Positions 1,467-22,570 of a stretch of DNA of 64,000 nt are shown here, one piece after another. The notes under the pieces were generated by a model. It saw only the letters and a list, made by a program, of their open reading frames with translations, was not told where the DNA came from and did not search any database. This DNA comes from Candidatus Omnitrophota bacterium (GTDB lineage Bacteria > Omnitrophota > Gorgyraeia > Tantalellales > Tantalellaceae). Location of the stretch: positions 66,236 through 130,235 of the forward strand of contig JBDRKO010000026.1 of NCBI GenBank assembly GCA_043813915.1, written 5' to 3'. How positions within the stretch are numbered: the stretch's first letter is position 1; every line of letters starts with the position of its first letter. The translations under genes were made by a program, and so were the position numbers.

Positions 1467-3065
1467 ATGAGCAAAAGATCTTTGTATATATGGGTGTTCG
1501 TGTTTTTCGCGTGCATATACTCGTTTTTCTCTATCGGCCATTATGGGGGAGACGGGTACGAGGATTACCTCACGGCCGAAAGCCTCGTTCTTGACGGAAA
1601 TACCGCGTTATATGACAGGCCCGATGATCCCGATGAATTGGAATACAAGACGGGGGCGGGCATAAAAGGCAAGGACGGCAGAATATATTCTTCAGGAAGG
1701 AAGTTGGGCGTTCCGATCCTTATCGCCCCTCTTTACGGAGCGGGTCATCTCGTGTCTTACGTTTTTAAACAGGCGCCCCATGATCATATAACGATGATGT
1801 TCGCTTCCTTCTATAATCCTCTGGTAACGGCCGCCGGTGTTCTTCTCGTTTTGATGATATCCATACATCTCGGGTTTAAACGCAGACTTCTTGTGGTTGT
1901 CGCGTTTTTATACGGCCTCACGACCATGACGATGGTCTATACAAGGACGGGGTTCGCGGATCCTACCCTGGTGGTATTCCTGCTTTTAACCGCGTATTTT
2001 CTGATAACCTATTCCAAAAATCCCAGGATGGTGTATCTGGCTTGGGCGTCCCTATCCATGGTCTATTGCGTGCTTACGAAGGTCAACGGGCTGATATTCC
2101 TCCCATGCTTTATCGTATATCTTATGTGGGTAAGCTGGGAAAAGGGTCAAACTGTTTCAGAGAGATTGAAACCCGTTCTATTTTTCGTTATCCTTACGTC
2201 TTTGCTGACAGCGTGCGCATTGAAATTGGAAAGTATGACCTTCGGCGGTATTTCCAGCTTGGACAGGGCGCGTGCGGCGGGAGGCGCGATACGTATTCTG
2301 GAGGCCGATCATTTTCTGAAAGGGGTTTATTATTATCTGTTCAGCCCCGGTAAGGGGTTTTTGATATACAACATTACGCTTATACCGGCTTTTTTCGCGG
2401 TAAAAAAGATTTTCAAATTACGGAATAAGGAGGCGATACTGTTCTTCCTTATTTTTATCGTCAATCTTGTTTTCTATGCCAAATCGTTCAGGCGCGGTTC
2501 GCTTTTTTCCTGGGGGCCGAGATATCTTCTTCCTTCGGTGCCTTTTATGTCGTTCCTTGTCGGATATTTTCTGGAAGACGCGAAAAGCGTTTTTAAAAAG
2601 ACCGTTATGTGGCTGCTTTCGCTGACAGGTTTTGCGATAATGCTGCCGTGCATGATGGTCAATCAGTCAAAGTTCTATTTTTTTGTAGTGGAAAAACTGA
2701 AACTGGACGAATACTTGATAAACTTTATCCCCGATCTTTCGCCGATAAAAGGAGCATGGTCGATGCTCATATCACGGCTTGCTTATGATCTTGGCGGTGC
2801 GGAACTGCCGTTCGTGTTCGATCCGGATTACAGGCTTGTCGGTGATCCCGTTACTTATCTTATGGAGGGCTATAACTATCTGGATCTGTGGTCCTTAAAG
2901 GTGATACAGCTCGCGCCTGCTTTCGGTCCCTATGTAAACGCTGTTCTGGGGATACTGATATTATCGGCATTCGTGGCTTTATATAAGATATACAGAAACA
3001 GGGATGCCGTATTTGCTTGCGAGGCGCCTAAAGAGGATCGATATGTTAAAAGAATTCGGCCCTGA
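1467..3065 (+). CDS. polytopic membrane glycosyltransferase, GT-C fold (ArnT / PMT / GT39-GT83-like)
   Basis: About 12 predicted TM helices, N-terminal loop with acidic motif (GGDGYEDY), large C-terminal soluble domain; start ATG follows the RtcB stop with an SD-like aaaggat. Confidence 0.5.
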   Translation: MSKRSLYIWVFVFFACIYSFFSIGHYGGDGYEDYLTAESLVLDGNTALYDRPDDPDELEYKTGAGIKGKDGRIYSSGRKLGVPILIAPLYGAGHLVSYVFKQAPHDHITMMFASFYNPLVTAAGVLLVLMISIHLGFKRRLLVVVAFLYGLTTMTMVYTRTGFADPTLVVFLLLTAYFLITYSKNPRMVYLAWASLSMVYCVLTKVNGLIFLPCFIVYLMWVSWEKGQTVSERLKPVLFFVILTSLLTACALKLESMTFGGISSLDRARAAGGAIRILEADHFLKGVYYYLFSPGKGFLIYNITLIPAFFAVKKIFKLRNKEAILFFLIFIVNLVFYAKSFRRGSLFSWGPRYLLPSVPFMSFLVGYFLEDAKSVFKKTVMWLLSLTGFAIMLPCMMVNQSKFYFFVVEKLKLDEYLINFIPDLSPIKGAWSMLISRLAYDLGGAELPFVFDPDYRLVGDPVTYLMEGYNYLDLWSLKVIQLAPAFGPYVNAVLGILILSAFVALYKIYRNRDAVFACEAPKEDRYVKRIRP

Positions 3066-4035
3066 TAATTTTAAAGTAAGAGAGAAAGTGGCGGACAGAC
3101 CGTCGATGGGAAGATACGCTTCTTCCTGCGCGTGGGGGTCCGACATTTTTCATCTCAGGATAGATGCCGATGAGTATACGGAAGCGTCTTTCAGAACATA
3201 TTATCCCGTATTTGAGAAGCACGCCAAAGCGTTAACGGTATTTTTTAACGCTTGTTCTTTCAGAAACTCTGAAAAAGAGGTACTGAAGTGCCGGGACTTG
3301 GGGATAGATATACAGTCGCATGCTTTCTATCATTATACGTATAATGACTATGCCAGCAACAGACATAATATACATCTGGCAAAAGAGTTCTTTGATTCAC
3401 TCGGGGTAGAGACAATAGGTTTTGCCGCGCCGACGGGAAAATGGAACGCGTCTCTTATGAAAGCGTTGGAGGACGAGGGATACAAATACTCATCGGATTT
3501 TTCTTATGATTACATGGCTTTCCCGAGTTATCCTTTGCTGTGCCGCAGGCCTTCACGTGTGATGGAGATACCTATCTTTCCTGTTGCCCCGGAACTTTTT
3601 TTTCAGGGTACGCCTTGCGAAGAGGAAATTGTTCTCGAATATTATAAGAACGCTATAGACGGACTTATAGCGGGAGGGTTACCGGTAATAATTTATGCGC
3701 ATACCAGCCCGGCAATACGTGAGGTGCCTTCATTGCTTGAGGAAATAGCGGACTACGCGGTCGGAAAGAAAGGTCTGAGACCGGTCTCTATGACCGGCCT
3801 TTTTCATATGACGGACGGGAAAGCTCCTGTCCGGGAAAATGTATCCCTGCCCGGAGAGACGGGAAAAATGCCCATGGAAAACTTTTCAGGCAGACGTGTC
3901 CGGCCTGGGATCTTCTCTGCCGTGAAAGACGCCCTGAAAGAAGCTATTGATTTTGAGAGGATAACGCCGGAAGAAGAACTTAAATGCGGGCATGTTAAAA
4001 AAGCGCTTAAACTGCTCGCCAGAAAAATGACTTGA
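3043..4035 (+). CDS. polysaccharide deacetylase-like (CE4 family) protein
   Basis: HLRIDADE...SHAFYHYTY...GFAAPTG pattern typical of NodB-type deacetylase Asp/His metal site; start chosen at ATG 3043 with agagga SD (ORF track start 3004 also possible). Confidence 0.45.
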   Translation: MLKEFGPDNFKVREKVADRPSMGRYASSCAWGSDIFHLRIDADEYTEASFRTYYPVFEKHAKALTVFFNACSFRNSEKEVLKCRDLGIDIQSHAFYHYTYNDYASNRHNIHLAKEFFDSLGVETIGFAAPTGKWNASLMKALEDEGYKYSSDFSYDYMAFPSYPLLCRRPSRVMEIPIFPVAPELFFQGTPCEEEIVLEYYKNAIDGLIAGGLPVIIYAHTSPAIREVPSLLEEIADYAVGKKGLRPVSMTGLFHMTDGKAPVRENVSLPGETGKMPMENFSGRRVRPGIFSAVKDALKEAIDFERITPEEELKCGHVKKALKLLARKMT

Positions 4036-4060: not shown

Positions 4061-5947
4061 ATGGAACATGATATAAACAAACAACTTATAGACATGGCCG
4101 GAAAAAAGAACGGATTGGCCGATGCGCGCTCATTTTTTCTGGACCAGGCCGAGAACGGGTATAACATGCTTCTGTGGAAATGTTATCTTGCGCGGGTCGC
4201 GAACCGCAAAGAAGGGATCAATAAGACCGAAAGGATAGCTATCCTGGGATCATCTAACGTAACGCCGCTTAAAGATAAACTTAAAGTAATGTTCCACGCT
4301 CATGGAGTAGATACGGAATTCTATATGGGGGAATATAATAACTGGTATCAGGAACTTCTGTTCGATGAAAGGTCCGGTCTGTATGGGTTAGGCCCGTCGA
4401 TCGTGGTGATGATATTGAGTTTTCAGGATATTTTTCAGGACTCATATGAGAGCTTACTGTCTTTTTCTCAAGTGAAAGTGAACAGGATCCTGAAAAGAAC
4501 GTTGGGCCATATTATAGACGCGGTTAATTATTTTTGCTCAAAATTCCCTGAAAGCGCCGTATATCTCTCTGTAATACCTCCGGTAGAAGACCCTTCCAGC
4601 TACGCATATTGGCCGGGTACTGTGCATAAAAGCCGCGGATATTTTCATAAATTTTGCGGGACAATTGCGGATTATTGGAAAGAAAACGATAATATTTTCA
4701 TGCTGAATACCGGAAACATTATTCAAGGATATAAAAAAGAACAGATAGCGGATAAAAGGTATTGGTATTTGGGGAGAATAAGATACACGGACCTGTTCTT
4801 CTCGGAACTATCAAGAGAGCTAGTTAAAGTGTACAATATGGCGCATTCCATTCCCAAAAAATGTCTTATTGTTGATCTGGATGGAACGCTTTGGGGCGGG
4901 ATCATAGGAGAAGACGGACGCAGTAATATTATCCTGGGGCAGGACGGTTTGGGGCAGGCATATCAGGATTTCCAGAGGGAGATACTTAAATTATACGAAA
5001 AGGGCATAATACTCGCGATATGCAGTAAAAATAATGAATCTGATGTGGATATATTATTACATATGGATAAAAGAATGTTGCTGAAGGATGAACATTTCAC
5101 ATCAAAACGGATAAACTGGAATGATAAGGCCTCCAACATAGAGGAAATAGCGAAAGAGATAAACATAGGGCTTGATTCCATAGTATTCCTCGACGATAAT
5201 CCTGTTGAGAGAGAATGGGTCAGGGAAAACCTTCCTGAAGTGACCGTTCCTGAGATGCCGGAAGATCCCTCTAGGTATGCGGAATTCCTGAAGAATTCAA
5301 AATGGTTTAATTCGTATAATACAACAAAGGAAGATCGTATAAGGAACATTACTTATAAAGCTGTTGCGAAAAGCAAAAAACTTAAAGAAAAGTCGAAAAA
5401 CATTAATAGTTTTATTAGAGATCTCAAACAACAGGTTATCATAGAAGATGTTAATACATCTACTATTTCAAGAGCCGTACAATTAAGCCAAAAGACCAAT
5501 CAGTTTAAGATGAATCATAAAAGATACGAATTGTCTGAAATGAAAAATATGATCAAGGATAAGGACTATAAGATATACACACTCAGTCTAAAGGATTGTT
5601 TTTGTGATTATGGCATAATCGGACTTATGATCATGAAGAACGATCATATTGATGATTTCATCTTAAGCTGCCGAGTTATAGGTAGAAAGATAGAAGATGT
5701 AATTATAGATTGGCTGAAGAAAAGGTTAAAGAAGGAGGGCTACAGTCACATATATGGTAGATATAGAACCAGTACTAAAAATTCTGTCTGCAAAGATGTA
5801 TATAAAGAGAATGGGTTTATATCAAAGGAAGAGGGTGTGCTGAATACCGGAGGTGCTAATACAATTAACAAATATAATTTGAAGGGTAAGGTTGGATTCT
5901 CATCTTTCAAGGATATTATTAAGGTGAAGTATGAAGGGAAAAGATGA
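4061..5947 (+). CDS. FkbH-like HAD-superfamily (subfamily IIIC) domain protein with C-terminal GNAT-like domain
   Basis: LIVDLDGTLWGG HAD motif I, followed by ICSKNNESD and FLDDNP motifs characteristic of FkbH/HAD-IIIC; stop TGA 5945-5947 abuts the ACP gene. Confidence 0.6.
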   Translation: MEHDINKQLIDMAGKKNGLADARSFFLDQAENGYNMLLWKCYLARVANRKEGINKTERIAILGSSNVTPLKDKLKVMFHAHGVDTEFYMGEYNNWYQELLFDERSGLYGLGPSIVVMILSFQDIFQDSYESLLSFSQVKVNRILKRTLGHIIDAVNYFCSKFPESAVYLSVIPPVEDPSSYAYWPGTVHKSRGYFHKFCGTIADYWKENDNIFMLNTGNIIQGYKKEQIADKRYWYLGRIRYTDLFFSELSRELVKVYNMAHSIPKKCLIVDLDGTLWGGIIGEDGRSNIILGQDGLGQAYQDFQREILKLYEKGIILAICSKNNESDVDILLHMDKRMLLKDEHFTSKRINWNDKASNIEEIAKEINIGLDSIVFLDDNPVEREWVRENLPEVTVPEMPEDPSRYAEFLKNSKWFNSYNTTKEDRIRNITYKAVAKSKKLKEKSKNINSFIRDLKQQVIIEDVNTSTISRAVQLSQKTNQFKMNHKRYELSEMKNMIKDKDYKIYTLSLKDCFCDYGIIGLMIMKNDHIDDFILSCRVIGRKIEDVIIDWLKKRLKKEGYSHIYGRYRTSTKNSVCKDVYKENGFISKEEGVLNTGGANTINKYNLKGKVGFSSFKDIIKVKYEGKR

Positions 5948-6173
5948 AATGAAAGAAAAACTTAAGTTCATAATAGCTAACTGCTGCAGTATAGACACTT
6001 CCGCGGTAGATGATAACGCTAAGGTGAATGAGACACCTAACTGGGATTCTTTCGGGCATCTTCAGATAATGTCATGCGTCGAACAGGAGTTCGGTGTCTC
6101 CTTTGATACCAGGACCATCTCGGCTCTGCTTTCATATAAGGATATACTGGGGTATCTGAAGGAGAACACTTAG
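5931..6173 (+). CDS. acyl carrier protein
   Basis: About 75-80 aa acidic protein with NWDSFGHLQIM, a DSL-like phosphopantetheine attachment motif; alternative start ATG 5949 right after the FkbH stop. Confidence 0.6.
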   Translation: MKGKDEMKEKLKFIIANCCSIDTSAVDDNAKVNETPNWDSFGHLQIMSCVEQEFGVSFDTRTISALLSYKDILGYLKENT

Positions 6174-6194
6174 ACCGGACCGGTATCATATATC

Positions 6195-7316
6195 ATGGAG
6201 AGAAATATAAACATACGAAACTATAGAGAGGAAGATACACCGGCCGTGGTGGGACTTCTTTCCGGATTTTATGACAACGTAAAGACGGAGGAGGACTGGA
6301 GGCGTCTTTACCTCGATAATCCGGCGGGAAGCGCGGTAATATCACTTGCTGAAGAGACGTCCGGGAAGAAACTGATAGGCCATTACTCGGTGATAAAGAT
6401 GGAGATGTCCGTTTTCGGCGAGAAACGGTTTTGCGGAAAAGGGGAAGGTGAGATATTCGATCTTCCGTTCTTAATAGGACTTTTGAAAAGAGGTGTAAAA
6501 ATAGAGCCTTCTTCGGAAAAGCTTATCAGGCACACTATGAACGCGGCGCTTGCCTGTGGGCTAGAGATGGTTTGTACCAATCCGAACGATCTGGCTCTCA
6601 AGTCTCATATCGCGGCGGGATATGACAGTTTGCGTCAGGAATTCAGCATATTTGTTTTGCCGCTAAAAAGCCGATATCTTTCTCATGTATTAACGAAAAA
6701 AAAGAACTTGGCCGGCACGGCATGTTTCATAAGTTCTTTAGTAGCACCACTTATACACTTTCTCTATTCCGTAAAAGTGTTATTCTTCGGGAGAACCGGG
6801 GTATGTCTTGACCCTATCGGGTCTTTCGACAGCCGTACGGATATCTTCGCGGAAGCATTAGGGAAGGATAAGCATGTTATCGCCATAGACCGAAGCGCGG
6901 GCCATCTTAATTGGCGTTTCGGAAAGGAAGAATATAAAAAATATGTTATACGGGACGGCGGTAAGGATATAGGATATGCCGTTTTGCATGTTTTCATCAA
7001 CCCTAACGGTTTTAAAGAGGCGTGCCTTGTGGATTATCTTTTTCTGCCGGAGGGGTGGGGAAAGTTTAAAGGTACTATTGTCAAAATAACGGAAGAAGCA
7101 AAGAAGTATGATAGCGATCTTCTGCGTGTTAACTATATGCATGACAGGAAAGAAACGTTCGGACTGGCAGGTGTATTAAAGGAACTTTTTTTTACGAAGA
7201 GGTCCGACAAAAGGAACATCACTGTCTTTCTGTCTTCACAGCTCGAAGATGAAAAAGAAAAAATATTGGATATAAAAAACTGGTTCTTTACGGATCTTTA
7301 TTTCGAGGGATATTAA
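6195..7316 (+). CDS. GNAT / FemAB-like acyltransferase family protein
   Basis: About 370 aa, size and position typical of FemAB/BioF2-like GNAT acyltransferases that accompany FkbH-ACP pairs in glycan loci; no sharp motif identified. Confidence 0.4.
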   Translation: MERNINIRNYREEDTPAVVGLLSGFYDNVKTEEDWRRLYLDNPAGSAVISLAEETSGKKLIGHYSVIKMEMSVFGEKRFCGKGEGEIFDLPFLIGLLKRGVKIEPSSEKLIRHTMNAALACGLEMVCTNPNDLALKSHIAAGYDSLRQEFSIFVLPLKSRYLSHVLTKKKNLAGTACFISSLVAPLIHFLYSVKVLFFGRTGVCLDPIGSFDSRTDIFAEALGKDKHVIAIDRSAGHLNWRFGKEEYKKYVIRDGGKDIGYAVLHVFINPNGFKEACLVDYLFLPEGWGKFKGTIVKITEEAKKYDSDLLRVNYMHDRKETFGLAGVLKELFFTKRSDKRNITVFLSSQLEDEKEKILDIKNWFFTDLYFEGY

Positions 7317-9110
7317 GTGCAGATAAAAAAAGTGAACATAATTATCCTGAATTATAACGGGAAGGACCTTCTGGCGAAATATCTTCCTTCTGTAATAGAA
7401 GCGGGTGATCTGTCCCGGCATGAATGCAAGGTGTCGGTTATCGATAATAAAAGTTCTGACGGTTCCGTAGAGTTCCTGCGTTCCGATTTTCCCGGGGTCG
7501 ATATTTTTGTCGCGAAAGAAAACAGGGTGCTCTGTTCATTTAACGAAGTCGTACGTTCCGTGACGGAAGAGATAGTTATATTCCTGAACAACGATATCGG
7601 ACTGGACCCCGGTTTTGTAGACCCGCTTATCAGCCATTTCGGTAATGATGGGATTCTTTTTGCGGCGCCGAAAGAATGTTCTCCCGACGGCGAATTCCGT
7701 GGCGGGGTCAATCGCGGTGTTTTTAAATTCGGGTTTTTCAGGAACCTTGTCAAAGAGGGGTCCGAAGATACCTGCCAATATTCCATGGCGGTCCATGGCG
7801 GTGCGTTCGACCGTAAAAAATTCAATGAACTCGGCGGGTATGACGATATGTATCTTCCGGGTTATGTTGAGGACCTTGACCTGTGTTACCGGGGCTGGAA
7901 ACGCGGTTGGTACGGGTTATATGAACCGCGGAGCGTTATGTTCCATGAAGGATGCGCAAGTTTTAACAAAACATACGGGCATGACAGGAAACTTACGATA
8001 GTGCACAGGAACACTTTTCTTTTCTTCTGGAAGAACGTCACCTCTTTCCGCCAGATATTTCTGCATGTTCTTTTTATTGTCCCGCGGTTGGTCCTGTCTC
8101 TGGTGACGGGACGTCTATCATTGGTGTTGGGGTTTTTTCAGGCTCTCAAACGTATCGGCCGGGCTTTAAAGGGGAGACGGGATGTGCGGGGGACATTTAC
8201 CTTAACTGATGAAGAAGTGCTGCGCCGGATAGAAAGCGGCTTTACGGGAATTGAAGAGGAGAAGATCACGCAGGAAGAAGTCCTGTCGGCCAACGTTGAA
8301 TATCATAACAAGATCGCGGCGCGTTACGAAAAGGACGCGTCGACGCGTCTTTTGTTCGAAGAGAGCCCGAATTCTGGACGGCGCATAGAGGGTGTGATGA
8401 AATATCTGGAAGAAGAAACTGCGGGCGAAAAATTCCTTGATATAGGATGCGGGACAGGTAATGTCCTGAGCCGGGCGGCTAAGCGTTTCAAAGAAGCCGT
8501 AGGAATAGACGCCTCGGCTGAAATGCTCAAGATATCCGAAGCAAAGGGCCTGAATGTCGTGCAGGGCGACGCTCTCGCTCTTCCTTGGCCTGCCGGTACG
8601 TTTGACGCCGTAAGCGCTTTTTCGGTTGTGCATCATTTTCTGCGTCCCGGGGATATTTTGAAAGAGGCATACAGGGTACTTAAGGACGGCGGATACCTTT
8701 ATACCGATTGGGATCCTAACGCAAAGGCCGCTTCGCTTTTCGACGCCGGCAGCCAATCAAAACTTTTTACCTTTATTCACGGATTTTATATGTCCGTGAA
8801 GAGAAAAGTCCGCAGTTTGCCTGAAAACGTCAGAAGCGAGTCGGATGAGCTCGAACAGCTCGCGAATATAGCAGAGTACCATCATAAAAAAGGGCTGGAT
8901 GCGGGAAAGATCTCCTCAGAACTCGAGCACATAGGATTTAAAGACGTAAAAGTGTATTTCCATAACAATACGGACGATCTTTTCCGCCCGGAACGCCTGA
9001 ACCCGTGGGAGATGACCAAAATAACCGCAAGAAGAGCCCTGAACTATGATCTAGGCGTTCCGCGCCCCGAAAATATCTGCTCTCAATTCGCTATCTTAGC
9101 CAGAAAATGA
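7317..9110 (+). CDS. bifunctional glycosyltransferase family 2 (N-term) / class I SAM-dependent methyltransferase (C-term)
   Basis: GTG start immediately after GNAT stop; N-term ILNYNGKDLL...VIDNKSSDGS (GT2) with DxD-like region; C-term LDIGCGTGNV (SAM motif I) and DAVSAFSVVHH (motif II/III). Confidence 0.6.
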   Translation: MQIKKVNIIILNYNGKDLLAKYLPSVIEAGDLSRHECKVSVIDNKSSDGSVEFLRSDFPGVDIFVAKENRVLCSFNEVVRSVTEEIVIFLNNDIGLDPGFVDPLISHFGNDGILFAAPKECSPDGEFRGGVNRGVFKFGFFRNLVKEGSEDTCQYSMAVHGGAFDRKKFNELGGYDDMYLPGYVEDLDLCYRGWKRGWYGLYEPRSVMFHEGCASFNKTYGHDRKLTIVHRNTFLFFWKNVTSFRQIFLHVLFIVPRLVLSLVTGRLSLVLGFFQALKRIGRALKGRRDVRGTFTLTDEEVLRRIESGFTGIEEEKITQEEVLSANVEYHNKIAARYEKDASTRLLFEESPNSGRRIEGVMKYLEEETAGEKFLDIGCGTGNVLSRAAKRFKEAVGIDASAEMLKISEAKGLNVVQGDALALPWPAGTFDAVSAFSVVHHFLRPGDILKEAYRVLKDGGYLYTDWDPNAKAASLFDAGSQSKLFTFIHGFYMSVKRKVRSLPENVRSESDELEQLANIAEYHHKKGLDAGKISSELEHIGFKDVKVYFHNNTDDLFRPERLNPWEMTKITARRALNYDLGVPRPENICSQFAILARK

Positions 9111-9148: not shown

Positions 9149-10378
9149 TCATGCCATGACCGATCCGCCGCAGACAAGCATCTGGCTTCCCACAACGTAA
9201 TCCGTGTAAGATGAAGCCATCAGAAGCACGACGTTCGCCGTGTCGATCGGTTCCGCGTTCCTTTTAAGGGGAACATCCATAGCCATCTTCTTTTTGAACC
9301 ATTCGGGTATATGCGCTCCGAGATCGGTGTCCGTGAAACCGGGGGAGACGACATTGAAGAAGATGTTCTTAGAGGCGTATTCCACGGCAAGCGAACGTGT
9401 AAGGCCCAGAAGAGCGGTTTTAGCGGTCACATATTTCGTGAAGCCGGCCGGCGGGGCGCTGTTGGTATACACTGTGGTGATATTGACGACTTTACCGTAG
9501 CCGTTCTTTTCCATTACGGGAAGGACAGCTTTCGTGCAGTTGAAAGCGCCTTTTACCGCTACATCAATATCTTTTTGAATATCTTCCCATTCGAGTTTTT
9601 CAAATTCAACGGGTATAGCATCACTCATAGCGTTATTTACGAGGATGTCGATCTTACCGAACTCCTTCAACGCTTTTGATATCATTTTGCTGACTTCGTC
9701 TTTATCTGACACATCGGCTTTAAGGGCGACGGCCCTTTTTTTTGAAGATACAATATCTTTCACGACACGATCGGCATCTTTTTTGCCGAGCCTGTAATTG
9801 ACTATCACGTCCGCTCCGTGATGCGCGAAAAGTTTTGCTGTGGCCTCTCCGATCCCGCGGCTTGCGCCGGTTACAAGAACGACCTTACCCTTAAAATCCA
9901 GATTCACGGCTTTTTTTTTAAGTTCCTTCATTGTTACACCTCTTTTTGCGGGTGGATTCACCAGGACACCTACGGTTCCGGTGATAACGGTCTCGTTTTT
10001 CTGGTTGGTTATGGCGATAACTATATCAATTTTACCCGAAATGTCATTTTTTGATCTTACGTTACCGGTTATCATGAGGATATCACCGGCCTTGACGGGT
10101 TTAAGATATTTAGCGGAATGATCAAGGATAAGGGCGTTCTCCCCGGGAAGGTACATACCGACAAGTGTAGATACGTAAGAATAGGCTAAAAGACCGTGCG
10201 CTACACGGCTCCGGAAACGCGTTTTCCTGGCGAATTCTTCGTTTACATGAATAGGGCTGTGGTCACCGGTCAATTCCGCGAAATGTGATATGGTCTTTTC
10301 GGTGATCCCGGCCTTGAAAGAGGCCTTTTGCCCTACGGTGATCTCGCCTATAGTATACTTTTTAGCGGCTTTATTCAT
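9149..10378 (-). CDS. MaoC-like (R)-hydratase/dehydratase hot-dog domain fused to short-chain dehydrogenase/reductase (FabG-like)
   Basis: N-terminal HSPIHVNEEFARKTRF...VAHG hot-dog motif; C-terminal VTGASRGIG Rossmann motif, NNA, and YxxxK (YVTAK) SDR catalytic motif; the only minus-strand gene in the window. Confidence 0.65.
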   Translation of the reverse strand: MNKAAKKYTIGEITVGQKASFKAGITEKTISHFAELTGDHSPIHVNEEFARKTRFRSRVAHGLLAYSYVSTLVGMYLPGENALILDHSAKYLKPVKAGDILMITGNVRSKNDISGKIDIVIAITNQKNETVITGTVGVLVNPPAKRGVTMKELKKKAVNLDFKGKVVLVTGASRGIGEATAKLFAHHGADVIVNYRLGKKDADRVVKDIVSSKKRAVALKADVSDKDEVSKMISKALKEFGKIDILVNNAMSDAIPVEFEKLEWEDIQKDIDVAVKGAFNCTKAVLPVMEKNGYGKVVNITTVYTNSAPPAGFTKYVTAKTALLGLTRSLAVEYASKNIFFNVVSPGFTDTDLGAHIPEWFKKKMAMDVPLKRNAEPIDTANVVLLMASSYTDYVVGSQMLVCGGSVMA

Positions 10379-10579
10379 ATGGACTTATGGTACGCTATCC
10401 CGCATACATTGTCAAGCGCTGCAAGGTTTTACCCGGTATGTTTACATCCGATCCGGAGGGGATATCACGGGATACAGGATCGGACAAGGTTCTACGCTAA
10501 AAGAGCAGTATTTACTTGCCCTATAAGGTATTTATATTATAATATCAGTCTGACACACACTTTACAAAAGGAGTTGGAT

Positions 10580-11548
10580 ATGGCTGGATTCTATAATAAT
10601 AAAAGGGTGCTTGTTACAGGCGCTGACGGTTTTATGGGGTCGCATCTTACCGAAAAACTGCTTGCCGAAGGGGCAAAAGTGTCGGTTTTTGTCCGGGGAA
10701 GCTCGACGATAGGCACCACCCAGTACGCGCTTAGGAATATTAAGCATATAGAGAAAAATCTGGAGGGGATAATTACCGGCAATATAGCCGCGCAGGACGC
10801 CAAGGACCTGGTGATAAAGAACAGACCCAGCATAATATTTCACCTTGCCGCGGACGCATATGTCCCCAATTCTTTCGATCATCCCATGGAGGTCATGGAG
10901 ACGAACCTGATAGGTACGCTGAATATGCTCCATGCGGTAAAAGAGAGCAAGGGAATAAAAAGGATAGTTTGTACGTCTTCCAGTGAGATATACGGCATGA
11001 CCATCGGCGGGTCCATAAATGAGGACCATTTGCTTTATCCCTCATCTCCCTATGCCGCGAGTAAGGTAGCGGCGGATAAGTATTGCTACTCATACTGGAA
11101 TACGTATCATCTGCCGGTAGCTATCATCAGGCCGTTCAATACTTACGGCCCTCGGCATACCTATGACGTAATACCGAAATTTATAGACATGGCGCTTAAG
11201 AACAAAACTCTTACCGTACATGGTACAGGCCGGCAGTCGAGGGATTTCACGTATGTAGACGACATGATAGACGCTTTCATGTTAATGGGCAGGCATGAGG
11301 ACGCTATAGGCAAAGCGGTCAACTTCGGTACCGGTGAGGCTATAACCGTAAATTACATAGCGAAGAAAGTGAAAGAGCTCTCCGGATCAAAGTCTAAGAT
11401 AGTGCATACGAAAGACCGGAAGGCGCAGGTGCCGAAGCTTTTATGCGATTATTCGCTGGCTAAGAAATTATTCGGATGGAAACCGAAGATATTTATTGAT
11501 GAGGGTCTCAGGAGGAACATAGAATGGGAGAAAGAGAACCGGGTGTAA
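10580..11548 (+). CDS. NAD-dependent sugar-nucleotide epimerase/dehydratase (extended SDR)
   Basis: VTGADGFMGSHL Rossmann motif, YAASK catalytic YxxxK; ATG 10580 preceded by aaaggag SD; ORF-track upstream extension to 10328 rejected. Confidence 0.7.
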   Translation: MAGFYNNKRVLVTGADGFMGSHLTEKLLAEGAKVSVFVRGSSTIGTTQYALRNIKHIEKNLEGIITGNIAAQDAKDLVIKNRPSIIFHLAADAYVPNSFDHPMEVMETNLIGTLNMLHAVKESKGIKRIVCTSSSEIYGMTIGGSINEDHLLYPSSPYAASKVAADKYCYSYWNTYHLPVAIIRPFNTYGPRHTYDVIPKFIDMALKNKTLTVHGTGRQSRDFTYVDDMIDAFMLMGRHEDAIGKAVNFGTGEAITVNYIAKKVKELSGSKSKIVHTKDRKAQVPKLLCDYSLAKKLFGWKPKIFIDEGLRRNIEWEKENRV

Positions 11549-12006
11549 AGATACACCCCACAGCCATAATCTCTGATAAGGCCAAGATAGGCAAAGGGAC
11601 GGTTATATGGGCTTACGCCCAGGTGATGGACGGCGCGGAAATAGGCGAGGGGTGCGTTCTGGGAAACGGCGTTTATGTGGATAGGAATGTAAAAATAGGT
11701 AGTAACGTTAAAATACATAACAAGGCTTCTGTTTATAACGGTACGGTTATTAAGGATAATGTTTTTGTAGGACCGCATGCATGTTTTACCAATGATAAAC
11801 ATCCGAGATGCGATAAAACGAGAGATATGAATGAAGTATCGTGGTATGTAGGCGAAGGCGCTTCAATAGGGGCAAACGTAACGGTTCTTCCGGATGTAAA
11901 TATCGGACCTGGTGCTGTAGTGGGCGCGGGGTCGGTAGTGACTAAAGATGTACCGGAAGGCGCGGTCTGTTATGGGAATCCGGCGCGGGTGGTTGAGGGG
12001 GGATAG
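11524..12006 (+). CDS. hexapeptide-repeat (left-handed beta-helix) sugar N-/O-acetyltransferase
   Basis: Multiple [LIV]-G-x-x-x-x hexapeptide repeats (IGKGTVIWAYAQV, IGEGCVLGNGVYV, IGSNVKIHN...); overlaps the upstream epimerase by 25 nt. Confidence 0.6.
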   Translation: MGEREPGVKIHPTAIISDKAKIGKGTVIWAYAQVMDGAEIGEGCVLGNGVYVDRNVKIGSNVKIHNKASVYNGTVIKDNVFVGPHACFTNDKHPRCDKTRDMNEVSWYVGEGASIGANVTVLPDVNIGPGAVVGAGSVVTKDVPEGAVCYGNPARVVEGG

Positions 12007-12236
12007 AGAGTGTCAAAGTGTCAGAGTATCAGAGTGTCAGGTTGGACCGATGCGGGAAGAAGGGACAGAGGGAAGAAAGACGAAGGAAGAAGGACGAAGG
12101 AAGAAAGACGCGGGCGGACGTGTAATGTTTTATGTGTGATGTGTAAGGACGAGATTGCTTCCCCCCGTCGCTTTGCTCCGCAAAGCGGAGCAGCGGGGGT
12201 CGCAATGACGGGTGGGAGGAAAGGTTGAAAGGGCGA

Positions 12237-13499
12237 ATGATTCATAAAACAGAGAATGTATTAAGCGAGGAAATAATCCTGGCAAAAAACTGGATATTGA
12301 ATTCGGGGATACAGAATACAGACGGCAAAAATCAAGGGGGGTTCAATTCGTGGTTTGATGTAGGATCCGGGGGGTATCCGTATGTTTATTCCGAGATAAC
12401 GGGATACGGGATAACAACGCTTTTGTATTTGAAACTATTTTTTGACGGTCAATTTTTAGATCGAGCGAGGTATGCGGCGGATTGGCTCATAAAAAATGCC
12501 GTCAGTGAAAACGGCGGGGTGAGAACAAGGGACTATCAGCAGGATATGTATGAGTCGGAGGCGTATTCTTTTGAAAGCGGTAACATATATACTTTTGACA
12601 GCGGAATGGTCCTATACGGAATGATCAGTCTATACAGGGACTGCAAGGATAATAAATATCTCGAAATATCAAAAAAAATAGCTTCATTTTTGATGAACCA
12701 TATGCGGAAGGAAGATGGGTTTTTCTACGCGTCATACGATCCCGCTACTAAAGAAAAAGCGGATTCTCCGTGGAAATGGTCTACGCAGAGCGGTAGTTAC
12801 CACGCGAAATTAGCTTTGGGATTTACCGATCTATATGAGGTAACCGGGGAAGAGGTCTATAAGGACGCCGCGCTATCTCTTTGCGGCAAAGCAATGGACT
12901 TGCAGGATCCTTCCGGAAGATTTATAACATCCCGCGCTGATAACAGTACTCATATGCATCCTCATGCGTATTCAGCCGAAGGGCTTTTGTACACCGGTAT
13001 ACATTTTGAAGAGGACGATCTTATTGATTCCGCCGAGAGAGCGGTTAAATGGTCTTTAGATAGCCAAAATCCGGACGGAGGGATACCCAAAAAACATAAC
13101 GGGCAGGACTTTATAAATTTGTACAGGGCCGATATACTTGCTCAGATACTCAGGTTAGGGGCTCTTTTAAAAAGTTTGGGAAGATTGGATGAAACATATT
13201 CATCTAAATTGGAGAAATTACGCAATAGCTTGCTTTCTTTTCAGTATAAAGAAAATGATCGGCAAAAAGGCGGATTCTATTATGGGTTCACCTTGGACGG
13301 AAAGAAGAAAGAACATATCAATTCATGGTGCAGTATGTTCGCTTTACAAGCTCTTATCATGTACGAGGAAAGCCTAGGGAGAGACTTAAGGAAAAGTGTC
13401 AGAGTGTCCCCGTACCAGTCTCTTCGTTCCGGTACAGGACAGGCGGCGTGTCAGAGTGTCAAGAAAGATAACACTAACATAATGGAGTATTTTGTATAA
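12237..13499 (+). CDS. hypothetical protein, repeated Gly-rich/aromatic segments suggestive of an (alpha/alpha)6-toroid sugar-modifying fold
   Basis: Periodic motifs ENGGVRTRDY / EDGFFYASYDP / PSGRFITSRAD / PDGGIPKKHNG; last ~25 codons are encoded by a GTGTCAGAG repeat module so the true C-terminus is uncertain. Confidence 0.3.
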   Translation: MIHKTENVLSEEIILAKNWILNSGIQNTDGKNQGGFNSWFDVGSGGYPYVYSEITGYGITTLLYLKLFFDGQFLDRARYAADWLIKNAVSENGGVRTRDYQQDMYESEAYSFESGNIYTFDSGMVLYGMISLYRDCKDNKYLEISKKIASFLMNHMRKEDGFFYASYDPATKEKADSPWKWSTQSGSYHAKLALGFTDLYEVTGEEVYKDAALSLCGKAMDLQDPSGRFITSRADNSTHMHPHAYSAEGLLYTGIHFEEDDLIDSAERAVKWSLDSQNPDGGIPKKHNGQDFINLYRADILAQILRLGALLKSLGRLDETYSSKLEKLRNSLLSFQYKENDRQKGGFYYGFTLDGKKKEHINSWCSMFALQALIMYEESLGRDLRKSVRVSPYQSLRSGTGQAACQSVKKDNTNIMEYFV

Positions 13500-14621
13500 A
13501 TGAAGAGAAAAATAGCTTTTATTTTTGGAACAAGACCCGAAATAATAAAAATGAGCCCCATAATCCGGCAATGTATCAAAAATAAAATTCCTTTTTTTAT
13601 GGTGCATACCGGACAACATTATTCGCACAGTATGTCTGATCTTTTTCTTGAAGAGCTTAAATTACCGGAACCGGATTATAACCTCAAGATCAGATCGAAA
13701 GCTCCGCATCGGCAGGGGGAACATACCGGGAAAATGATGGTGAAGCTCGATGAAATATTACTTAAGGAAATGCCTTCGGTAGTATTGGTTCAGGGCGATA
13801 CGAATTCGGCTTTAGCGGGAGCATTAACTGCTTCTAAAATATCGACTACCAAAGCATTCACCGGGTTTGAGATAAAGGTGGGACATGTAGAAGCCGGGCT
13901 TAGGAGTTATGATAGGACTATGCCCGAAGAAATAAATAGGGTCATTATTGATCATTTATCCGATTATCTTTTTGTTCCCTCAGTTGATGCTAAAAAGATA
14001 GTTCTTTCGGAAGGGATAAAGAAAGAAAAAATATGGGTAACCGGTAACACTATAGTAGATGCTGCATATCATGCGAGAGACTTAAATGCAAACACGAGGG
14101 ACAAGAGGCGATGGACGAAGGGCGAAGGATATATTTTGTTGACACTTCATCGTCAGGAGAACGTTGATGATAAAATTAGACTTAAGAAGATCCTGCAGGG
14201 GGTAGAACAAGTTTCAAAAAAACACAAATTGACCGTAATATTTCCTATTCATCCCAGAACAATGAATAAAATAGAAATATTTAAGATCGCTATGCCAAGA
14301 TCTGTGGATATAGTTAAACCTAAAGGGTTTTTAGATTTTATCCGGTTGGAATCAAGAGCGGATCTTATTTTGACAGATTCCGGCGGGTTACAGGAAGAAG
14401 CATGCGCTCTTAGGATCCCTTGTGTGACGCTTAGGAATTCCACGGAAAGACCCGAAACTGTGGATGCAGGGGCAAATATGGTAGCGGGAATAGAACCGGA
14501 GAATATAGTACGGTGCGCTGATAGGATGCTTTCCGCGAAAAAGAACTGGGGAAATCCTTTTGGCAGCGGGAAAGCGGCTATTAAGATACTGGATATATTG
14601 AAAAAGGATAATAACATATGA
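13500..14621 (+). CDS. wecB: UDP-N-acetylglucosamine 2-epimerase (non-hydrolysing)
   Basis: IAFIFGTRPEIIKMSPII N-terminus, HTGQHYS, HVEAGLRS motifs typical of WecB/MnaA. Confidence 0.8.
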   Translation: MKRKIAFIFGTRPEIIKMSPIIRQCIKNKIPFFMVHTGQHYSHSMSDLFLEELKLPEPDYNLKIRSKAPHRQGEHTGKMMVKLDEILLKEMPSVVLVQGDTNSALAGALTASKISTTKAFTGFEIKVGHVEAGLRSYDRTMPEEINRVIIDHLSDYLFVPSVDAKKIVLSEGIKKEKIWVTGNTIVDAAYHARDLNANTRDKRRWTKGEGYILLTLHRQENVDDKIRLKKILQGVEQVSKKHKLTVIFPIHPRTMNKIEIFKIAMPRSVDIVKPKGFLDFIRLESRADLILTDSGGLQEEACALRIPCVTLRNSTERPETVDAGANMVAGIEPENIVRCADRMLSAKKNWGNPFGSGKAAIKILDILKKDNNI

Positions 14622-15658
14622 GAGTGGCTTTTTTTGTTTACCCTTCGGCTTTTCAGAATAAAGGCGGAGGAGAGATACTTCTGGAAAAAACCGAAGAATA
14701 TCTGATAAAAAAAGGTATCGAGGTAAAACGTTTCGATATGTGGTCCGATAAGATCGAGAACTATGATATTCTTCATGTTTTCGGATCGGTTAAAGAATGT
14801 TTGGGTCTGATGCTGGTGGCAAGATCAAGAGGAGTAAAGGTAGTGCTTGAATCCATATTCTGGTCGGATATCAGGCGCGCATTCTTTGAATACGGCTCAC
14901 TTTCGGAAAAAGCGGCCAAAGTGATGCGTCATACTATGAAACTTTTATGTCCAGCTTTTCCGTCGTCGCGAAGAAAAATGTTCCTGGCCGCGGATATGAT
15001 ATTCCCGAATTCCGACAACGAAGCCCGGCAGATATCCAGGTTATTCGGTATAAAAAAAGATAAAATGTTCGTTGTCCCTAACGGGGTGGATGCTATCTTC
15101 GCCGCCGGAAATGCGGCCGATTTTACGCATAAATACGGATTAAAGGATTTTGTTCTTTATACGGGAAGAATAGAGCCCCGCAAGAATCAGCTCAATCTTA
15201 TCCGGGCCATGAAAGGTGTCGACCGTGATCTGGTCCTGATCGGTGATCGGGTTTCCGCATACGGGGATTATTATGACAGGTGCAGAAAAGAAGCCGGCGA
15301 AAGAACACATTTTATTCCCAGGATGGATCATGATTCGGACCTCTTTAGGGCCGCATACGCGGCGTGTGAAGTTTTTGTATTGCCGGGCTGGTTCGAGACT
15401 CCGGGCCTTGCGGCTGTGGAAGCCGCTCTTGCCGGAGCCAAACTTGTAGTGACGGACGGAGGGAGTACAAAAGAATATTTCAAGGATAAAGCTTTGTATA
15501 TAGATCCCGGCAGCCCCGCGGATATAAATAAGAAGATACAGAGCGCTCTTCGGGAAAAAAGGAGCGATGCTTTGAAAAACATGATAACAGGATCTTTAAC
15601 CTGGGAAAAAGTAGCTGAACGCATGATAGAAGGATATAGAAAGGTATTGGAACGATGA
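14618..15658 (+). CDS. glycosyltransferase family 1 (GT4)
   Basis: YTGRIEPRKN and ETPGLAAVEAALAGAKLVVTD (EX7E-like) motifs; 4-nt overlap with wecB stop. Confidence 0.7.
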   Translation: MRVAFFVYPSAFQNKGGGEILLEKTEEYLIKKGIEVKRFDMWSDKIENYDILHVFGSVKECLGLMLVARSRGVKVVLESIFWSDIRRAFFEYGSLSEKAAKVMRHTMKLLCPAFPSSRRKMFLAADMIFPNSDNEARQISRLFGIKKDKMFVVPNGVDAIFAAGNAADFTHKYGLKDFVLYTGRIEPRKNQLNLIRAMKGVDRDLVLIGDRVSAYGDYYDRCRKEAGERTHFIPRMDHDSDLFRAAYAACEVFVLPGWFETPGLAAVEAALAGAKLVVTDGGSTKEYFKDKALYIDPGSPADINKKIQSALREKRSDALKNMITGSLTWEKVAERMIEGYRKVLER

Positions 15659-16347
15659 AGTTATCTATACTTTTGCCGGTCTATAATGAGGTAAATACCC
15701 TGCTTGCACTGCTGAACAAAGTCGGCGGCGTGAATATGGAAAAAGAGATAATACTCGTAGATGATCGTTCGACGGACGGGACCAGAGAACTCCTGAAAGA
15801 GAAAATAGACGGTAAGATCGCCGGGATAAAAGTCTTTTATCACGAGAAAAATAAAGGTAAAGGAAGCGCGGTCCGAACGGCGCTGGAACACGCTGATGGG
15901 GATTATTGTATAATCCAGGATGCGGATCTTGAATACGATCCCGAAGATTATATATCGCTCATCGCCCGCGCAATGGACGGCAAAGAAGATGTTGTATACG
16001 GATCGAGGTTCCTCAGGACTTGGAAAACCACTTCATTTACCCATTATATGGTCAACGGATCGTTGACCTTTCTCACTAACCTGCTTTTTGGAAGCGGTCT
16101 GACCGACATGGAGACCTGTTATAAACTTGTGCGGACGGATGTCATGAAAAGTCTGGATCTCAAAGCCGACAGGTTCGAGTTGGAGCCGGAGATCACGGCT
16201 AAACTCCTGAAAAAAGGCCACAAGATACCCGAGATACCCGTATCATACAAGGGCAGGTCCTACCATGAAGGCAAAAAAATAGGGTGGAAGGACGGAATAG
16301 AAGCCGTGATAACTTTATTCCGTCTAAAGTTTTCACGTAACAAATGA
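15655..16347 (+). CDS. polyprenyl-phosphate sugar synthase, GT2 (GtrB/ArnC/Dpm1-like)
   Basis: LSILLPVYNE, VDDRSTDGT, IIQDADLEYDPED (DxD) motifs; about 230 aa soluble GT2 immediately upstream of a GT-C membrane transferase. Confidence 0.7.
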   Translation: MKLSILLPVYNEVNTLLALLNKVGGVNMEKEIILVDDRSTDGTRELLKEKIDGKIAGIKVFYHEKNKGKGSAVRTALEHADGDYCIIQDADLEYDPEDYISLIARAMDGKEDVVYGSRFLRTWKTTSFTHYMVNGSLTFLTNLLFGSGLTDMETCYKLVRTDVMKSLDLKADRFELEPEITAKLLKKGHKIPEIPVSYKGRSYHEGKKIGWKDGIEAVITLFRLKFSRNK

Positions 16348-17699
16348 AAAATGACATCATTTTGATAACGGCAATAGCCGCTGTGGTGCTGCTGTCCGGT
16401 TTGGGGTCCGGCAGCCTGAGCTCCTGGGACGAGGCTTTTTATGCGCAAGTATCCAGAGAAATGGAGATGTCGAATAACTGGATAGACCTTACCTGGGGAG
16501 ATGCTCCGTGGAGCGATAAGCCTCCGCTTTACATGTGGGGAACCGTACTTTTTTATAAAATATTCGGTGTGAATGAATTCTCGGCGCGTTTATTTTCCGC
16601 ACTTGCGGGCATATTTACGGCTCTCGTGACATATCTCTTGGCGAGAAAGCTGTTTTCCAGAAGAGAAGGCATACTTTCGGCTATTATGCTCTTAAGTACT
16701 TATCATTTTTTCTGGTTCGCGAGATCGGGAACTTTGGATGTTACCTTCACCCTGTTCGTACTGCTCTCGGTATACTTTTTTATGTCGTCCGATACGGACC
16801 GTCGCAATATCATATACTCCGCTTTGTTCTTCGGCCTGGCTTTTCTTACCAAAGGGATAGGCGCTTTTATCATACCGTTAATAATGATCCCCTATATCGC
16901 GATAACGCGCCGGTGGGATATGATATCCGATCGTTATACTTTAATGGGAGCCGTTCTGTTCGTTGCGACGGTGGGGATATGGTATTCAGCGGCGTTCATG
17001 CATTACGGCGCGTCGTTCTTTGAGGGCAACATCATAAAACATCTTATAACACGCACTACCGGGACAGTGGACGGGCATTACGGGAATTGGCTCGCATATG
17101 TGAACACGGTGTTGTATAAGGGGAAGCCATGGGGAGCCGTGGGCCTTATGGCTCTTCCGTTCTTTATATATGGGAGCATACGGGAACACAAGGCATCCGG
17201 GTGGATCCTCATATCCTGGATATTCATGACTTTGCTGGTCTTCAGCTCTATACGCACAAAACTGCATTGGTACATCATGCCCGTATACCCGGCCGTTATA
17301 ATAGTGGCCGGATGGGGTGTGTCACGGCTGTTGAAGAAACGCGCGTTGTTCACGGTCGCTGCATGTGCCGCGGCCATGATCCTGTATTTTGGATCGAAAA
17401 AAGGTCTTTTTGCCCTTGATTTCAACCCGGAAATAAAGGCTTTTTCCGTTGCGACCGCCGATAATATAGCGGACGGCGAAAAGATGTATCTTTACGGTGT
17501 CGGAGACCCAGGCGTCAGATTCTATTTAGGAGGGCACGGTAAAAATTTAAATTCGGAAAAAGAACTGGAACAAGCGCTGAGCGAAAACAGCGGTATTGTT
17601 ATTGTGGGGGAAACTTCCATGTTCGAAGAAAAAGGCCTGCGCGGAGAGATACTAGCTATGGGTCCGGGCAGGATAAGAGCTGTCCGGATGGAAAGGTGA
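16344..17699 (+). CDS. ArnT/PMT-like GT-C membrane glycosyltransferase (uses polyprenyl-P-sugar donor)
   Basis: Many TM helices, first periplasmic loop DEAFYAQVSREM...DKPPLYMW resembling the ArnT/PMT DE...KPPL motif; translationally coupled to upstream GT2. Confidence 0.6.
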   Translation: MKNDIILITAIAAVVLLSGLGSGSLSSWDEAFYAQVSREMEMSNNWIDLTWGDAPWSDKPPLYMWGTVLFYKIFGVNEFSARLFSALAGIFTALVTYLLARKLFSRREGILSAIMLLSTYHFFWFARSGTLDVTFTLFVLLSVYFFMSSDTDRRNIIYSALFFGLAFLTKGIGAFIIPLIMIPYIAITRRWDMISDRYTLMGAVLFVATVGIWYSAAFMHYGASFFEGNIIKHLITRTTGTVDGHYGNWLAYVNTVLYKGKPWGAVGLMALPFFIYGSIREHKASGWILISWIFMTLLVFSSIRTKLHWYIMPVYPAVIIVAGWGVSRLLKKRALFTVAACAAAMILYFGSKKGLFALDFNPEIKAFSVATADNIADGEKMYLYGVGDPGVRFYLGGHGKNLNSEKELEQALSENSGIVIVGETSMFEEKGLRGEILAMGPGRIRAVRMER

Positions 17700-18811: not shown

Positions 18812-19237
18812 GGGAGACGAAAGACGAGGGAAGAAGGACGAGAGACGAGGGAAGAGGGACGACTGTTAAGTATCAAGGAGAATAGTTTAAAAGTTAAAGT
18901 TCTGTGGACACCTTTCCCGGGGTAGTGTAAACCCGACCCTCAAGATGTCCCCAGAATATATTTTTACTGGTTACAGGTAACAGACAAAGGGCGTAAAGCC
19001 TGCCTGTCCTGCCTGCGGCAGGTAAACCGGCAGGCAGGGAGTCACCGCGCTTCGCGCTAGAGTCATCATTCGCTACGCTCATTAGGGTCAGAGAGTCAGA
19101 GGGGAAGAAAGACGAAGGAAGAGAGACGCGGGAAGAGTCGCGGAGAGGAGCACGGTTAACTTGCATTTATATTGAATCTATGATAAACTATACTTTATCA
19201 TAGATTTGTTAAATTGTTGAAAAATGGAGTGTGTTTT

Positions 19238-20464: not shown

Positions 20465-20496
20465 TCGGAGAGAACAGTTTAAAAGGTTAACCCATG

Positions 20497-20670
20497 CGCC
20501 CCGGCGAAGCCCCGTGCTTCAGGGCGGGGAAAATATCCGGGGCTCAGGATCAATTGGGAACCCTTCGGCTTCGCTCCCCTCGACAAGCTCCCCTCGGCCT
20601 TGCTCGGGACAGGCGGGGCAGGCAGGGCAGGCCCCGGTCTTTAGACCAGGGTATCGGTGAATTCAGAGCA
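20497..20670. repeat. about 170-bp repeat family J copy 1 (CCCCGGCGAAGCC...GATCAATTGGGAACCCTTCGGCTTCGCTCCCCTCGACAAGCTC...GTCTTTAGACC.GGGTATCGGT.AATT)
   Basis: Second copy at 34783-34945. Confidence 0.7.
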
Positions 20671-20924
20671 CAGGGCATGGCGCATAGTATTAAGAGAGAC
20701 GAAGGAAGAGCTGTTCCCTTGTCATCCCGACCGAACGAAGAGAGCGGAGGGATCTGGTTAAAAGAACATCGGAATCGGGAGATTCCGATGCACCTCGAAC
20801 ATTACGTTCTCGGCGCCTCGATTCGCCTTTGGCTCACTCGGGATGACAGGGTAGGGACATTTTACGAATCACCCCAGCAGATTTCTTCGAAATCTAAGCG
20901 CTGGGGCAGGCGAATTACGAAATC

Positions 20925-22436: not shown

Positions 22437-22570
22437 AAATAATTGTGTAAGGTGTTATGTGTAATGTGGGGAGGAATTAGTTAAAGGTTAACAAGGGCAT
22501 AGAGCACAGGGCAGAAATGGAGATAGAGGATAGAAACTAGAAACTATATTGGACCATAGACTATTGGATA

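Follow-up and report, generated by a model that had tools for sequence, protein, structure and literature searches.

The open reading frame (ORF) at positions 7317..9110 on the forward strand of a 64,000-nt stretch of DNA from a Candidatus Omnitrophota bacterium (assembly GCA_043813915.1, contig JBDRKO010000026.1, positions 66,236-130,235 of the forward strand; hereafter the window) encodes a single polypeptide of 597 amino acids, in which a family 2 glycosyltransferase (GT2) is followed by a class I S-adenosylmethionine (SAM)-dependent methyltransferase. The gene lies in a glycan cluster of ~27 kb (about 1.5-28.8 kb of the window) that holds GT4, GT2, GT9 and GT-C genes together with WecB and a Bac_transf initiating transferase, so that a glycosyltransferase and a SAM methyltransferase are found on one polypeptide within a glycan cluster, the arrangement by which bifunctional glycosyltransferase-methyltransferase enzymes are recognized. 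We consider it probable, with moderate confidence, that the protein acts as such an enzyme on the cytoplasmic side of the membrane, where it would take part in the synthesis of an undecaprenyl-linked, lipopolysaccharide-like surface glycan. The GT2 module would move a sugar from a nucleotide sugar onto a membrane-bound (lipid-linked) glycan intermediate, a hydrophobic helical hairpin and a basic patch would hold the protein at the membrane, and the C-terminal Methyltransf_11-type module would carry out the SAM-dependent methylation of the glycan, either on the residue just added or on a neighbouring one. Sugar transfer and methylation would in this way be coupled on one polypeptide. The donor sugar, the acceptor, the methylated atom and the glycan, rather than an acyl substituent, as the target are what we infer in this model.

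The fused protein and its two modules

In the mechanical ORF list the gene runs from a GTG start to a TGA stop, and its translation contains zero internal stops. The upstream ORF (6195..7316) ends with a TAA codon at 7314-7316, the GTG of the fusion gene follows directly at 7317, and direct reading of the sequence revealed a GAGGG Shine-Dalgarno-like motif at 7305..7309 on the same strand, 7 nt 5' of the GTG and within the 3' end of the upstream gene. By the same reading, such a motif is missing at the GTG that comes next in frame (7332). The position of the GTG and of the GAGGG motif supports the start and the translational coupling to the upstream GNAT gene that the initial annotation had put forward, and in four related loci the GNAT-fold gene and the GT2 gene adjoin just as closely, the interval between them ranging from -11 to +2 nt. 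A promoter and terminator scan around the gene returned sites no more numerous than in shuffled sequence, and the composition of the ORF shows no break between its GT2 half and its methyltransferase half.

The N-terminal half matches PF00535 (Glycos_transf_2) with 40.1 bits against a cut-off of 23.3 over amino acids 8-129, and has the GT-A fold that goes with membership of this inverting GT-A family. Its catalytic core comprises amino acids 1-215 (7317..7961, forward strand) and includes the motifs DNKSSD (amino acids 43-48), a DXD-like NND (91-93) and EDLD (185-188). The NND motif and the residues E185, D186 and D188 are invariant or nearly so in 18 fusion proteins and 15 standalone homologues, while D43, R192 and W194 are invariant in the alignment of the fusion proteins and likewise in the 15 standalone homologues. 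A functional GT2 module with an NXD variant of the DXD motif has been documented (PMC11231755). A role in glycosyl transfer of the inverting GT-A type is predicted for the module. An ArnC-like GT2 was also considered in view of the neighbouring deacetylase and GT-C genes and was rejected, as the profile search matched ArnC over the first ~110 residues only (E ~4e-4), and full-length similarity to ArnC/GtrB/DPMS-type enzymes, including their C-terminal membrane region, was not found for the window GT2.

Behind the core lies a helical region (amino acids 216-306, 7962..8234, forward strand), modelled as helices by AlphaFold2 (AF2), which contains a hydrophobic helical hairpin at amino acids 244-277 (8046-8147) followed by a basic stretch at 278-291. 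The Kyte-Doolittle 19-residue mean reaches its maximum, 2.06, centred at amino acid 256. Since standalone GT2 homologues, of 300-330 amino acids, stop just past this helical segment, the hairpin region belongs to the GT2 and is a probable monotopic membrane anchor of its C-terminus, behind which the methyltransferase has been appended. With a single membrane-spanning helix the nucleotide-dependent domains would end up on either side of the membrane, an implausible arrangement, whereas a hairpin would leave both in the cytoplasm. The modules are connected by a short acidic linker (amino acids 307-318, 8235..8270, forward strand) of low model confidence, with a predicted local distance difference test (pLDDT) score <50 for amino acids 310-317. 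The full-length AF2 model has a predicted template modelling score (pTM) of 0.56 and a disordered linker, and comes with no inter-domain error estimate for the relative placement of the two active sites.

The methyltransferase module occupies amino acids 319-597 (8271..9107, forward strand). Its match to PF08241 (Methyltransf_11) scores 85.4 bits against a cut-off of 21.2 over amino acids 374-462, and PF13649, PF13489 and PF13847 likewise exceed their cut-offs in this half. Motif I, LDIGCGTGN, is intact at amino acids 374-382 (8436-8462, forward strand) and is followed by GIDAS at amino acid 396, in which D397 is the acidic residue of strand 2, QGDA at 416, FDAVSAFSVVHH at 429 and LKDGG at 455. 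The C-terminal part carries a family-specific insertion with AEYH at amino acid 519 and a final strand, FAILARK. Standalone relatives of the methyltransferase share both motif I and D397. The absence of SAM-binding residues on closer alignment, which had been named as grounds for discarding the assignment, was thus not observed. The two folds and their motifs can be taken as established, the methyltransferase being a candidate for the complete seven-stranded Rossmann-like fold.

The other objection that had been foreseen, a sequencing frameshift joining two separate genes, does not hold either. The same 597-amino-acid protein, with at most the first residue differing, occurs in NCBI (MBU1083743.1 and MFH1411719.1, both annotated as 'methyltransferase domain-containing protein [Candidatus Omnitrophota bacterium]'), JGI, ENA and Logan, on contigs of up to 183 kb. 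A search for the same architecture in other genomes retrieved P0002, a protein of 605 amino acids from another metagenome in ENA, which is 61-62% identical to the window protein over residues 3-597 (66% for the GT2 half, 59% for the methyltransferase half). The two proteins have a conserved domain junction, with linkers that differ in length by 4 residues, and the P0002 contig has the gene order of the window, namely FkbH, acyl carrier protein (ACP), GNAT, GT2-methyltransferase and the MaoC/short-chain dehydrogenase/reductase (SDR) gene. The identical ORFs, together with this full-length homologue of conserved junction and gene order, exclude a frameshift artefact for practical purposes.

Recurrent joining of one GT2 clade to methyltransferases

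An exhaustive HMMER search, run against 1.84 billion cluster representatives, yielded 583 proteins with E<=1e-30. Of the 150 that ranked highest, P0002 is the only full-length match, and the remainder cover either amino acids ~1-310 or ~290-597; the exact combination is therefore rare, amounting to two sequence clusters in the databases searched. Nevertheless, other proteins of 503-916 amino acids join the GT2 clade of the window to methyltransferases. Besides the window protein and P0002 (type A), these comprise P0003, P0006 and P0030 (type B), a set of ~540 amino acids that includes P0004, P0010 and others (type C), and P0009, a GT2-methyltransferase-polysaccharide deacetylase protein of 916 amino acids (type D; 10001-12751 in locus L003). 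The GT2 parts of the fusion types are each about 40-48% identical to the window GT2 domain, whereas the methyltransferase parts score 20-60 bits between types as opposed to 190-390 within types. The clade has thus been joined to methyltransferases several times independently, with at least four mutually unrelated types, and such repeated joining argues for a functional link between sugar transfer and methylation. The recurrence of the fusion is itself established, and types B, C and D were found without FkbH. Across 80 GTDB species loci, most of the 38 closest GT2 genes stand alone, and the only larger ones are those of L015 and L027 (type C), L017 (type B) and L020, the last a 676-amino-acid ORF with an additional C-terminal part of no assigned family. 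Three further Omnitrophota loci (L029, L040 and L042) carry a separate methyltransferase gene between the GT2 and the deacetylase genes.

The closest syntenic genomes place the window protein in context. Both CAYSSS010000001 (loci L007/L093) and Omnitrophica RIFCSPHIGHO2_02_FULL_46_20 (L008) have the order GT-C, deacetylase, FkbH, ACP, tandem-GNAT, GT2, MaoC/SDR (on the reverse strand), dehydratase, hexapeptide, WecB, GT4 and GT9, an order that they share in full with the window. Their GT2, of 320-339 amino acids, is standalone, with the convergent MaoC/SDR gene directly next to it, and no methyltransferase is detectable within +/-8 kb in these loci. Because the closest relatives carry the GT2 standalone, the methyltransferase is a lineage-specific addition to it. 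As a natural pair, the genomes that have the methyltransferase domain and those that lack it allow a clean comparison of what is methylated.

As to where the added module came from, the best relatives of the methyltransferase are standalone proteins of ~350 amino acids, composed of an N-terminal Trm112p-type Cys ribbon and a methyltransferase (P0121, P0067, P0124 and others). They resemble the window module, with the Cys-rich ribbon standing in place of the GT2, and are 33-37% identical to it over 85-97% of its length. The similarity extends into the 130 C-terminal amino acids that AF2 could not model, where the AEYH insertion and the terminal strand are conserved. MAFFT placed the N-terminal ribbons of these standalone proteins wrongly onto the GT2 region. 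The three ribbon-methyltransferase genes that could be located (3/3) lie in Wza/Wzz/Wzx/Wzy-type polysaccharide clusters, beside GT2/GT4 genes, and no FkbH or ACP was found in these three clusters. Judged by this similarity, the module derives from the 'Trm112-ribbon + methyltransferase' family of polysaccharide clusters and was added, minus its ribbon, behind the C-terminus of a GT2 that otherwise stands alone. The fusion has in this respect the value of a Rosetta stone, since it ties an uncharacterized ribbon-methyltransferase family and an uncharacterized Omnitrophota GT2 clade to one pathway step. A second link of this kind, through the GT2 genes that adjoin the ribbon-methyltransferase genes, was ruled out, those GT2 being of a different clade and only distantly related to the window GT2 (30% identity over 128 amino acids). 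In loci L087-L090, two paralogous ribbon-methyltransferase genes flank a Wzx flippase (for example at 5300-6466 and 8001-9056 in L089); these pairs are located in Wza/Wzz/Wzy clusters and adjoin an amine-oxidase-like flavoprotein.

The novelty that the initial annotation implied for the fusion did not stand, since fusions of GT2 with PF08241 have already been described (PMC5207246, PMC2943079, PMC11231755). In the comparisons that follow, the likeness to CDR20291_0242, WsaE and ORF6 refers to architecture as described in those papers. The type B flagellin 'GT2' of Clostridioides difficile RT027, CDR20291_0242, has the same Pfam pair, PF00535 and PF08241, in one protein and is proposed to add and methylate rhamnose, and its cluster also has a gene of acyltransferase (FemAB) fold (PMC5207246). 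Unlike the window protein, it belongs to a Gram-positive bacterium, where its target is the protein-linked glycan of flagellin, with no membrane hairpin reported and no FkbH/ACP context. WsaE, of the S-layer glycan cluster of Geobacillus stearothermophilus NRS 2004/3a, likewise combines a SAM methyltransferase with GT2-type modules, a 2-O-methyltransferase with two rhamnosyltransferase domains, and O-methylates the sugar that its own glycosyltransferase modules build (PMC2943079); in contrast to the window protein, its methyltransferase is N-terminal, it has two glycosyltransferase modules, it is soluble, and its methylation serves to cap the chain within a pathway that uses an ABC transporter. 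In ORF6 of Klebsiella pneumoniae O7, a protein of O-antigen assembly considered here together with WbdD-type terminators, a methyltransferase-kinase and a coiled coil are joined to two GT2 modules, one with NXD for DXD, in a protein of >1200 amino acids (PMC11231755). ORF6 methylates a phosphate cap and depends on an ABC transporter, and the window protein has neither coiled coil nor kinase. The window protein would work like the described fusions but differs from them in domain order, in its membrane hairpin and in the lack of an ABC-transporter or terminator context. A chain-terminator role tied to an ABC transporter, of the WsaE/WbdD/ORF6 type, was rejected, as no Wzm/Wzt (ABC-2 type) occurs among the window ORFs scanned.

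Since such fusions are already established as a coupling of sugar addition with methylation, the window fusion in itself adds little. More unusual are the orphan tandem-GNAT family next to it, the modules for acyl supply that can replace one another, and the fact that one GT2 clade has repeatedly captured different methyltransferases and a deacetylase. The fusion also flags a conserved, unstudied glycan-editing locus (deacetylase, tandem-GNAT, FkbH/ACP and GT2) in a phylum of ultra-small, largely uncultured bacteria. Literature searches on FkbH in glycan clusters and on Omnitrophota glycan biosynthesis returned nothing relevant.

What is methylated

The initial annotation left the target of the methylation between the sugar and an ACP-borne substituent. 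Comparative evidence favours the glycan: the FkbH cassette exists without a methyltransferase in the closest syntenic loci, and the methyltransferase families joined to the GT2 clade or related to the window module exist without FkbH. Methylation of an ACP-borne group is in consequence the less likely option. The characterized fusions serve as precedents for a fused methyltransferase that acts on a sugar, as WsaE does and as CDR20291_0242 is proposed to do, with Klebsiella O7 ORF6 as a further case. Several observations weigh against a membrane-face GT2 whose tethered methyltransferase modifies the glycan. Both carriers of the type A fusion (2/2) also carry the FkbH-ACP-GNAT cassette; the C-terminal 130 amino acids of the AF2 model are of low confidence; and NCBIfam gave only sub-threshold matches to the methyltransferase, the best being to the DVU_1556 family with 61 bits against a cut-off of 155. 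Moreover, Wzx, Wzm/Wzt and Wzy are all missing among the window ORFs scanned, and it is on the export route that the stage of methylation would depend. The only ABC transporter in the window is an Opp-type importer at 40.4-46.7 kb.

The leading alternative, unlikely as we consider it, is that the methyltransferase acts on the glycerate-derived acyl group of the FkbH-ACP system, either on the ACP, in the manner of FkbG in methoxymalonyl-ACP synthesis, or after its transfer by the tandem-GNAT protein to an amino sugar, yielding O-methyl-glyceroyl. In methoxymalonyl-ACP pathways FkbH is paired with an O-methyltransferase (FkbG), and Campylobacter flagellin glycans bear di-O-methylglyceroyl groups. 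The proximity of the genes fits this proposal, since both type A clusters place the fusion directly after FkbH-ACP-GNAT, the fusion gene is translationally coupled to the GNAT gene, the FkbH match is strong, and the MaoC/SDR acyl-processing gene is adjacent. However, the same cassette in the same gene order does without any methyltransferase in L007, L008 and L093, the closest relatives of the module reside in clusters that lack FkbH and ACP, and the methyltransferase is joined to a membrane-anchored GT2 instead of the ACP or the GNAT protein, which points to the glycan. FkbG of the fkbGHIJK system is likewise found alongside an FkbH loader and a dedicated ACP, and is not known to be fused to a glycosyltransferase. 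The Pfam scan gave no match of the window methyltransferase to the FkbG/caffeoyl-CoA type family (Methyltransf_3, PF01596) at E<=0.01, and an FkbG-like methyltransferase was discarded on this ground and on that of the FkbH-ACP loci that have no methyltransferase.

A broader and rather improbable proposal, which we offer as speculation, would put the Omnitrophota GT2 at the centre of a modular 'add, de-N-acetylate, re-decorate' editing unit whose substrate is an amino sugar linked to a lipid. This unit would repeatedly have captured different partners, namely four unrelated methyltransferases, the PF01522 deacetylase, the tandem-GNAT protein and a swappable acyl supply (FkbH and ACP, or AMP-ligase and SDR), and the product in the window lineage would be an N-(O-methyl)glyceroyl or N-methyl-N-glyceroyl amino sugar. 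If this were true, the surface amino sugar of the window lineage would be previously undescribed.

Distinctly doubtful, in our estimation, is that the methyltransferase N-methylates an amino sugar after the deacetylase has stripped its N-acetyl group, in a 'transfer, deacetylate, re-decorate' sequence on a lipid-linked sugar that would follow the logic of ArnC (a GT2), ArnD (PF01522) and ArnT (a GT-C). It is true that a PF01522 deacetylase always stands beside this GT2 clade in Omnitrophota, that GT2, methyltransferase and deacetylase are fused in P0009, and that GT-C (PMT_2-like) genes flank the module, as LPG_synthase_TM genes also do in related loci. Yet the GT2 is not ArnC-like by sequence, no feature separates N- from O-methylation, and the GNAT acyltransferase of the window would compete for the same amine. 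Finally, the notion that the fusion arose as an artefact of assembly or sequencing, through a frameshift or a lost stop, or that its methyltransferase half is a decaying inactive remnant, is largely refuted and deserves next to no credence: a lost stop codon is conceivable, given that the GT2 of the closest syntenic genomes ends at about 320 amino acids, but those genomes have no downstream methyltransferase gene to fuse, with the convergent MaoC/SDR gene coming directly next, the same ORF recurs in several independent data sources and its architecture in a different metagenome, and the SAM-binding motifs are all intact and shared with standalone relatives.

Gene neighbourhood

The gene context of the fusion is established on both sides. 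Upstream, all on the forward strand, are a GT-C-like (PMT_2-like) gene at 1467-3065, a PF01522 polysaccharide deacetylase of 343 amino acids at 3004..4035 identified by Pfam, whose homologue in P0009 is the part fused to GT2 and methyltransferase, and an FkbH-domain protein of 628 amino acids at 4061..5947, a HAD-IIIC phosphatase-like glyceryl-ACP loader (TIGR01686, E 7e-86, 288 bits against a cut-off of 147). They are followed by a small ACP of 80 amino acids at 5931..6173, matched by the NCBIfam ACP models below their cut-off (E 1.8e-6) and 72% identical to the ACP of L007/L008, and by an orphan tandem-GNAT-fold protein of 373 amino acids at 6195..7316, a probable N-acyltransferase. For the latter, neither the single sequence nor a profile gave anything significant against Pfam, NCBIfam and the PDB, and structure comparison alone provided the fold.

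In the other loci with a tandem-GNAT homologue, L091 and L092, the next gene is a GT2 of 309-312 amino acids. The module for acyl supply located 5' of the tandem-GNAT gene consists of FkbH and ACP in the window (4061-6173), in L001 and in L007/L008, of a 99-amino-acid protein, an SDR and an AMP-binding ligase in L091 (1987-4349), and is absent from L092; it is thus interchangeable between genomes. Within the window, the FkbH-ACP stretch (4300-6100) has a G+C content of 0.32-0.42, as compared with 0.45-0.52 in the flanking glycan genes, which is compatible with its acquisition as a cassette.

The deacetylase of the window is 50-56% identical to those of L011, L016 and L025, loci of the GT2-(methyltransferase)-deacetylase kind, and only 31-32% identical to the 536-amino-acid deacetylase of L007/L008, despite the otherwise full synteny. 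Being nearer to the deacetylases of methyltransferase-type loci than to those of FkbH-type loci, it suggests that the locus is a mosaic.

Downstream, a convergent gene at 9149..10378 on the reverse strand encodes a fusion of a MaoC dehydratase with a FabG-like SDR (409 amino acids, by Pfam). It is 64-69% identical to its counterparts in L001, L007 and L008, which occupy the same position next to the GT2, and is presumably part of the acyl-processing cassette. The next gene, a 4,6-dehydratase at 10328-11548 on the forward strand, is listed with a TTG start and 406 amino acids, and this start overlaps the 5' end of the convergent gene. Because the Pfam match begins at amino acids 92-94 and the homologous genes are of 322-323 amino acids, the true start probably lies about 85-90 codons downstream of the listed TTG. 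The cluster continues with a hexapeptide acyltransferase (11524-12006), an (alpha/alpha)6-like protein (12225-13499), WecB (13500-14621), and GT4, GT2, PMT_2, GT9 and GT4 genes (14618-25247), among which three non-glycan ORFs are interspersed, and with the Bac_transf initiating transferase (25231-26694).

Three genes of the cluster encode GT-C/PMT_2-like (ArnT-type) membrane glycosyltransferases, at 1467-3065, 16344-17699 and 20925-22436 on the forward strand. An AAA_14/DUF4143 ATPase amid the glycan genes (19214-20464, forward strand) is possibly an inserted or mobile gene, and a 144-amino-acid ORF without Pfam match lies at 20494-20928. Outside the glycan cluster, the remainder of the window consists of housekeeping genes. 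One of the ORFs, of the aconitase family (47045-48325, forward strand, 426 amino acids), has a nearly full-length antisense ORF of 405 amino acids (47093-48310, reverse strand), which is probably a chance shadow ORF.

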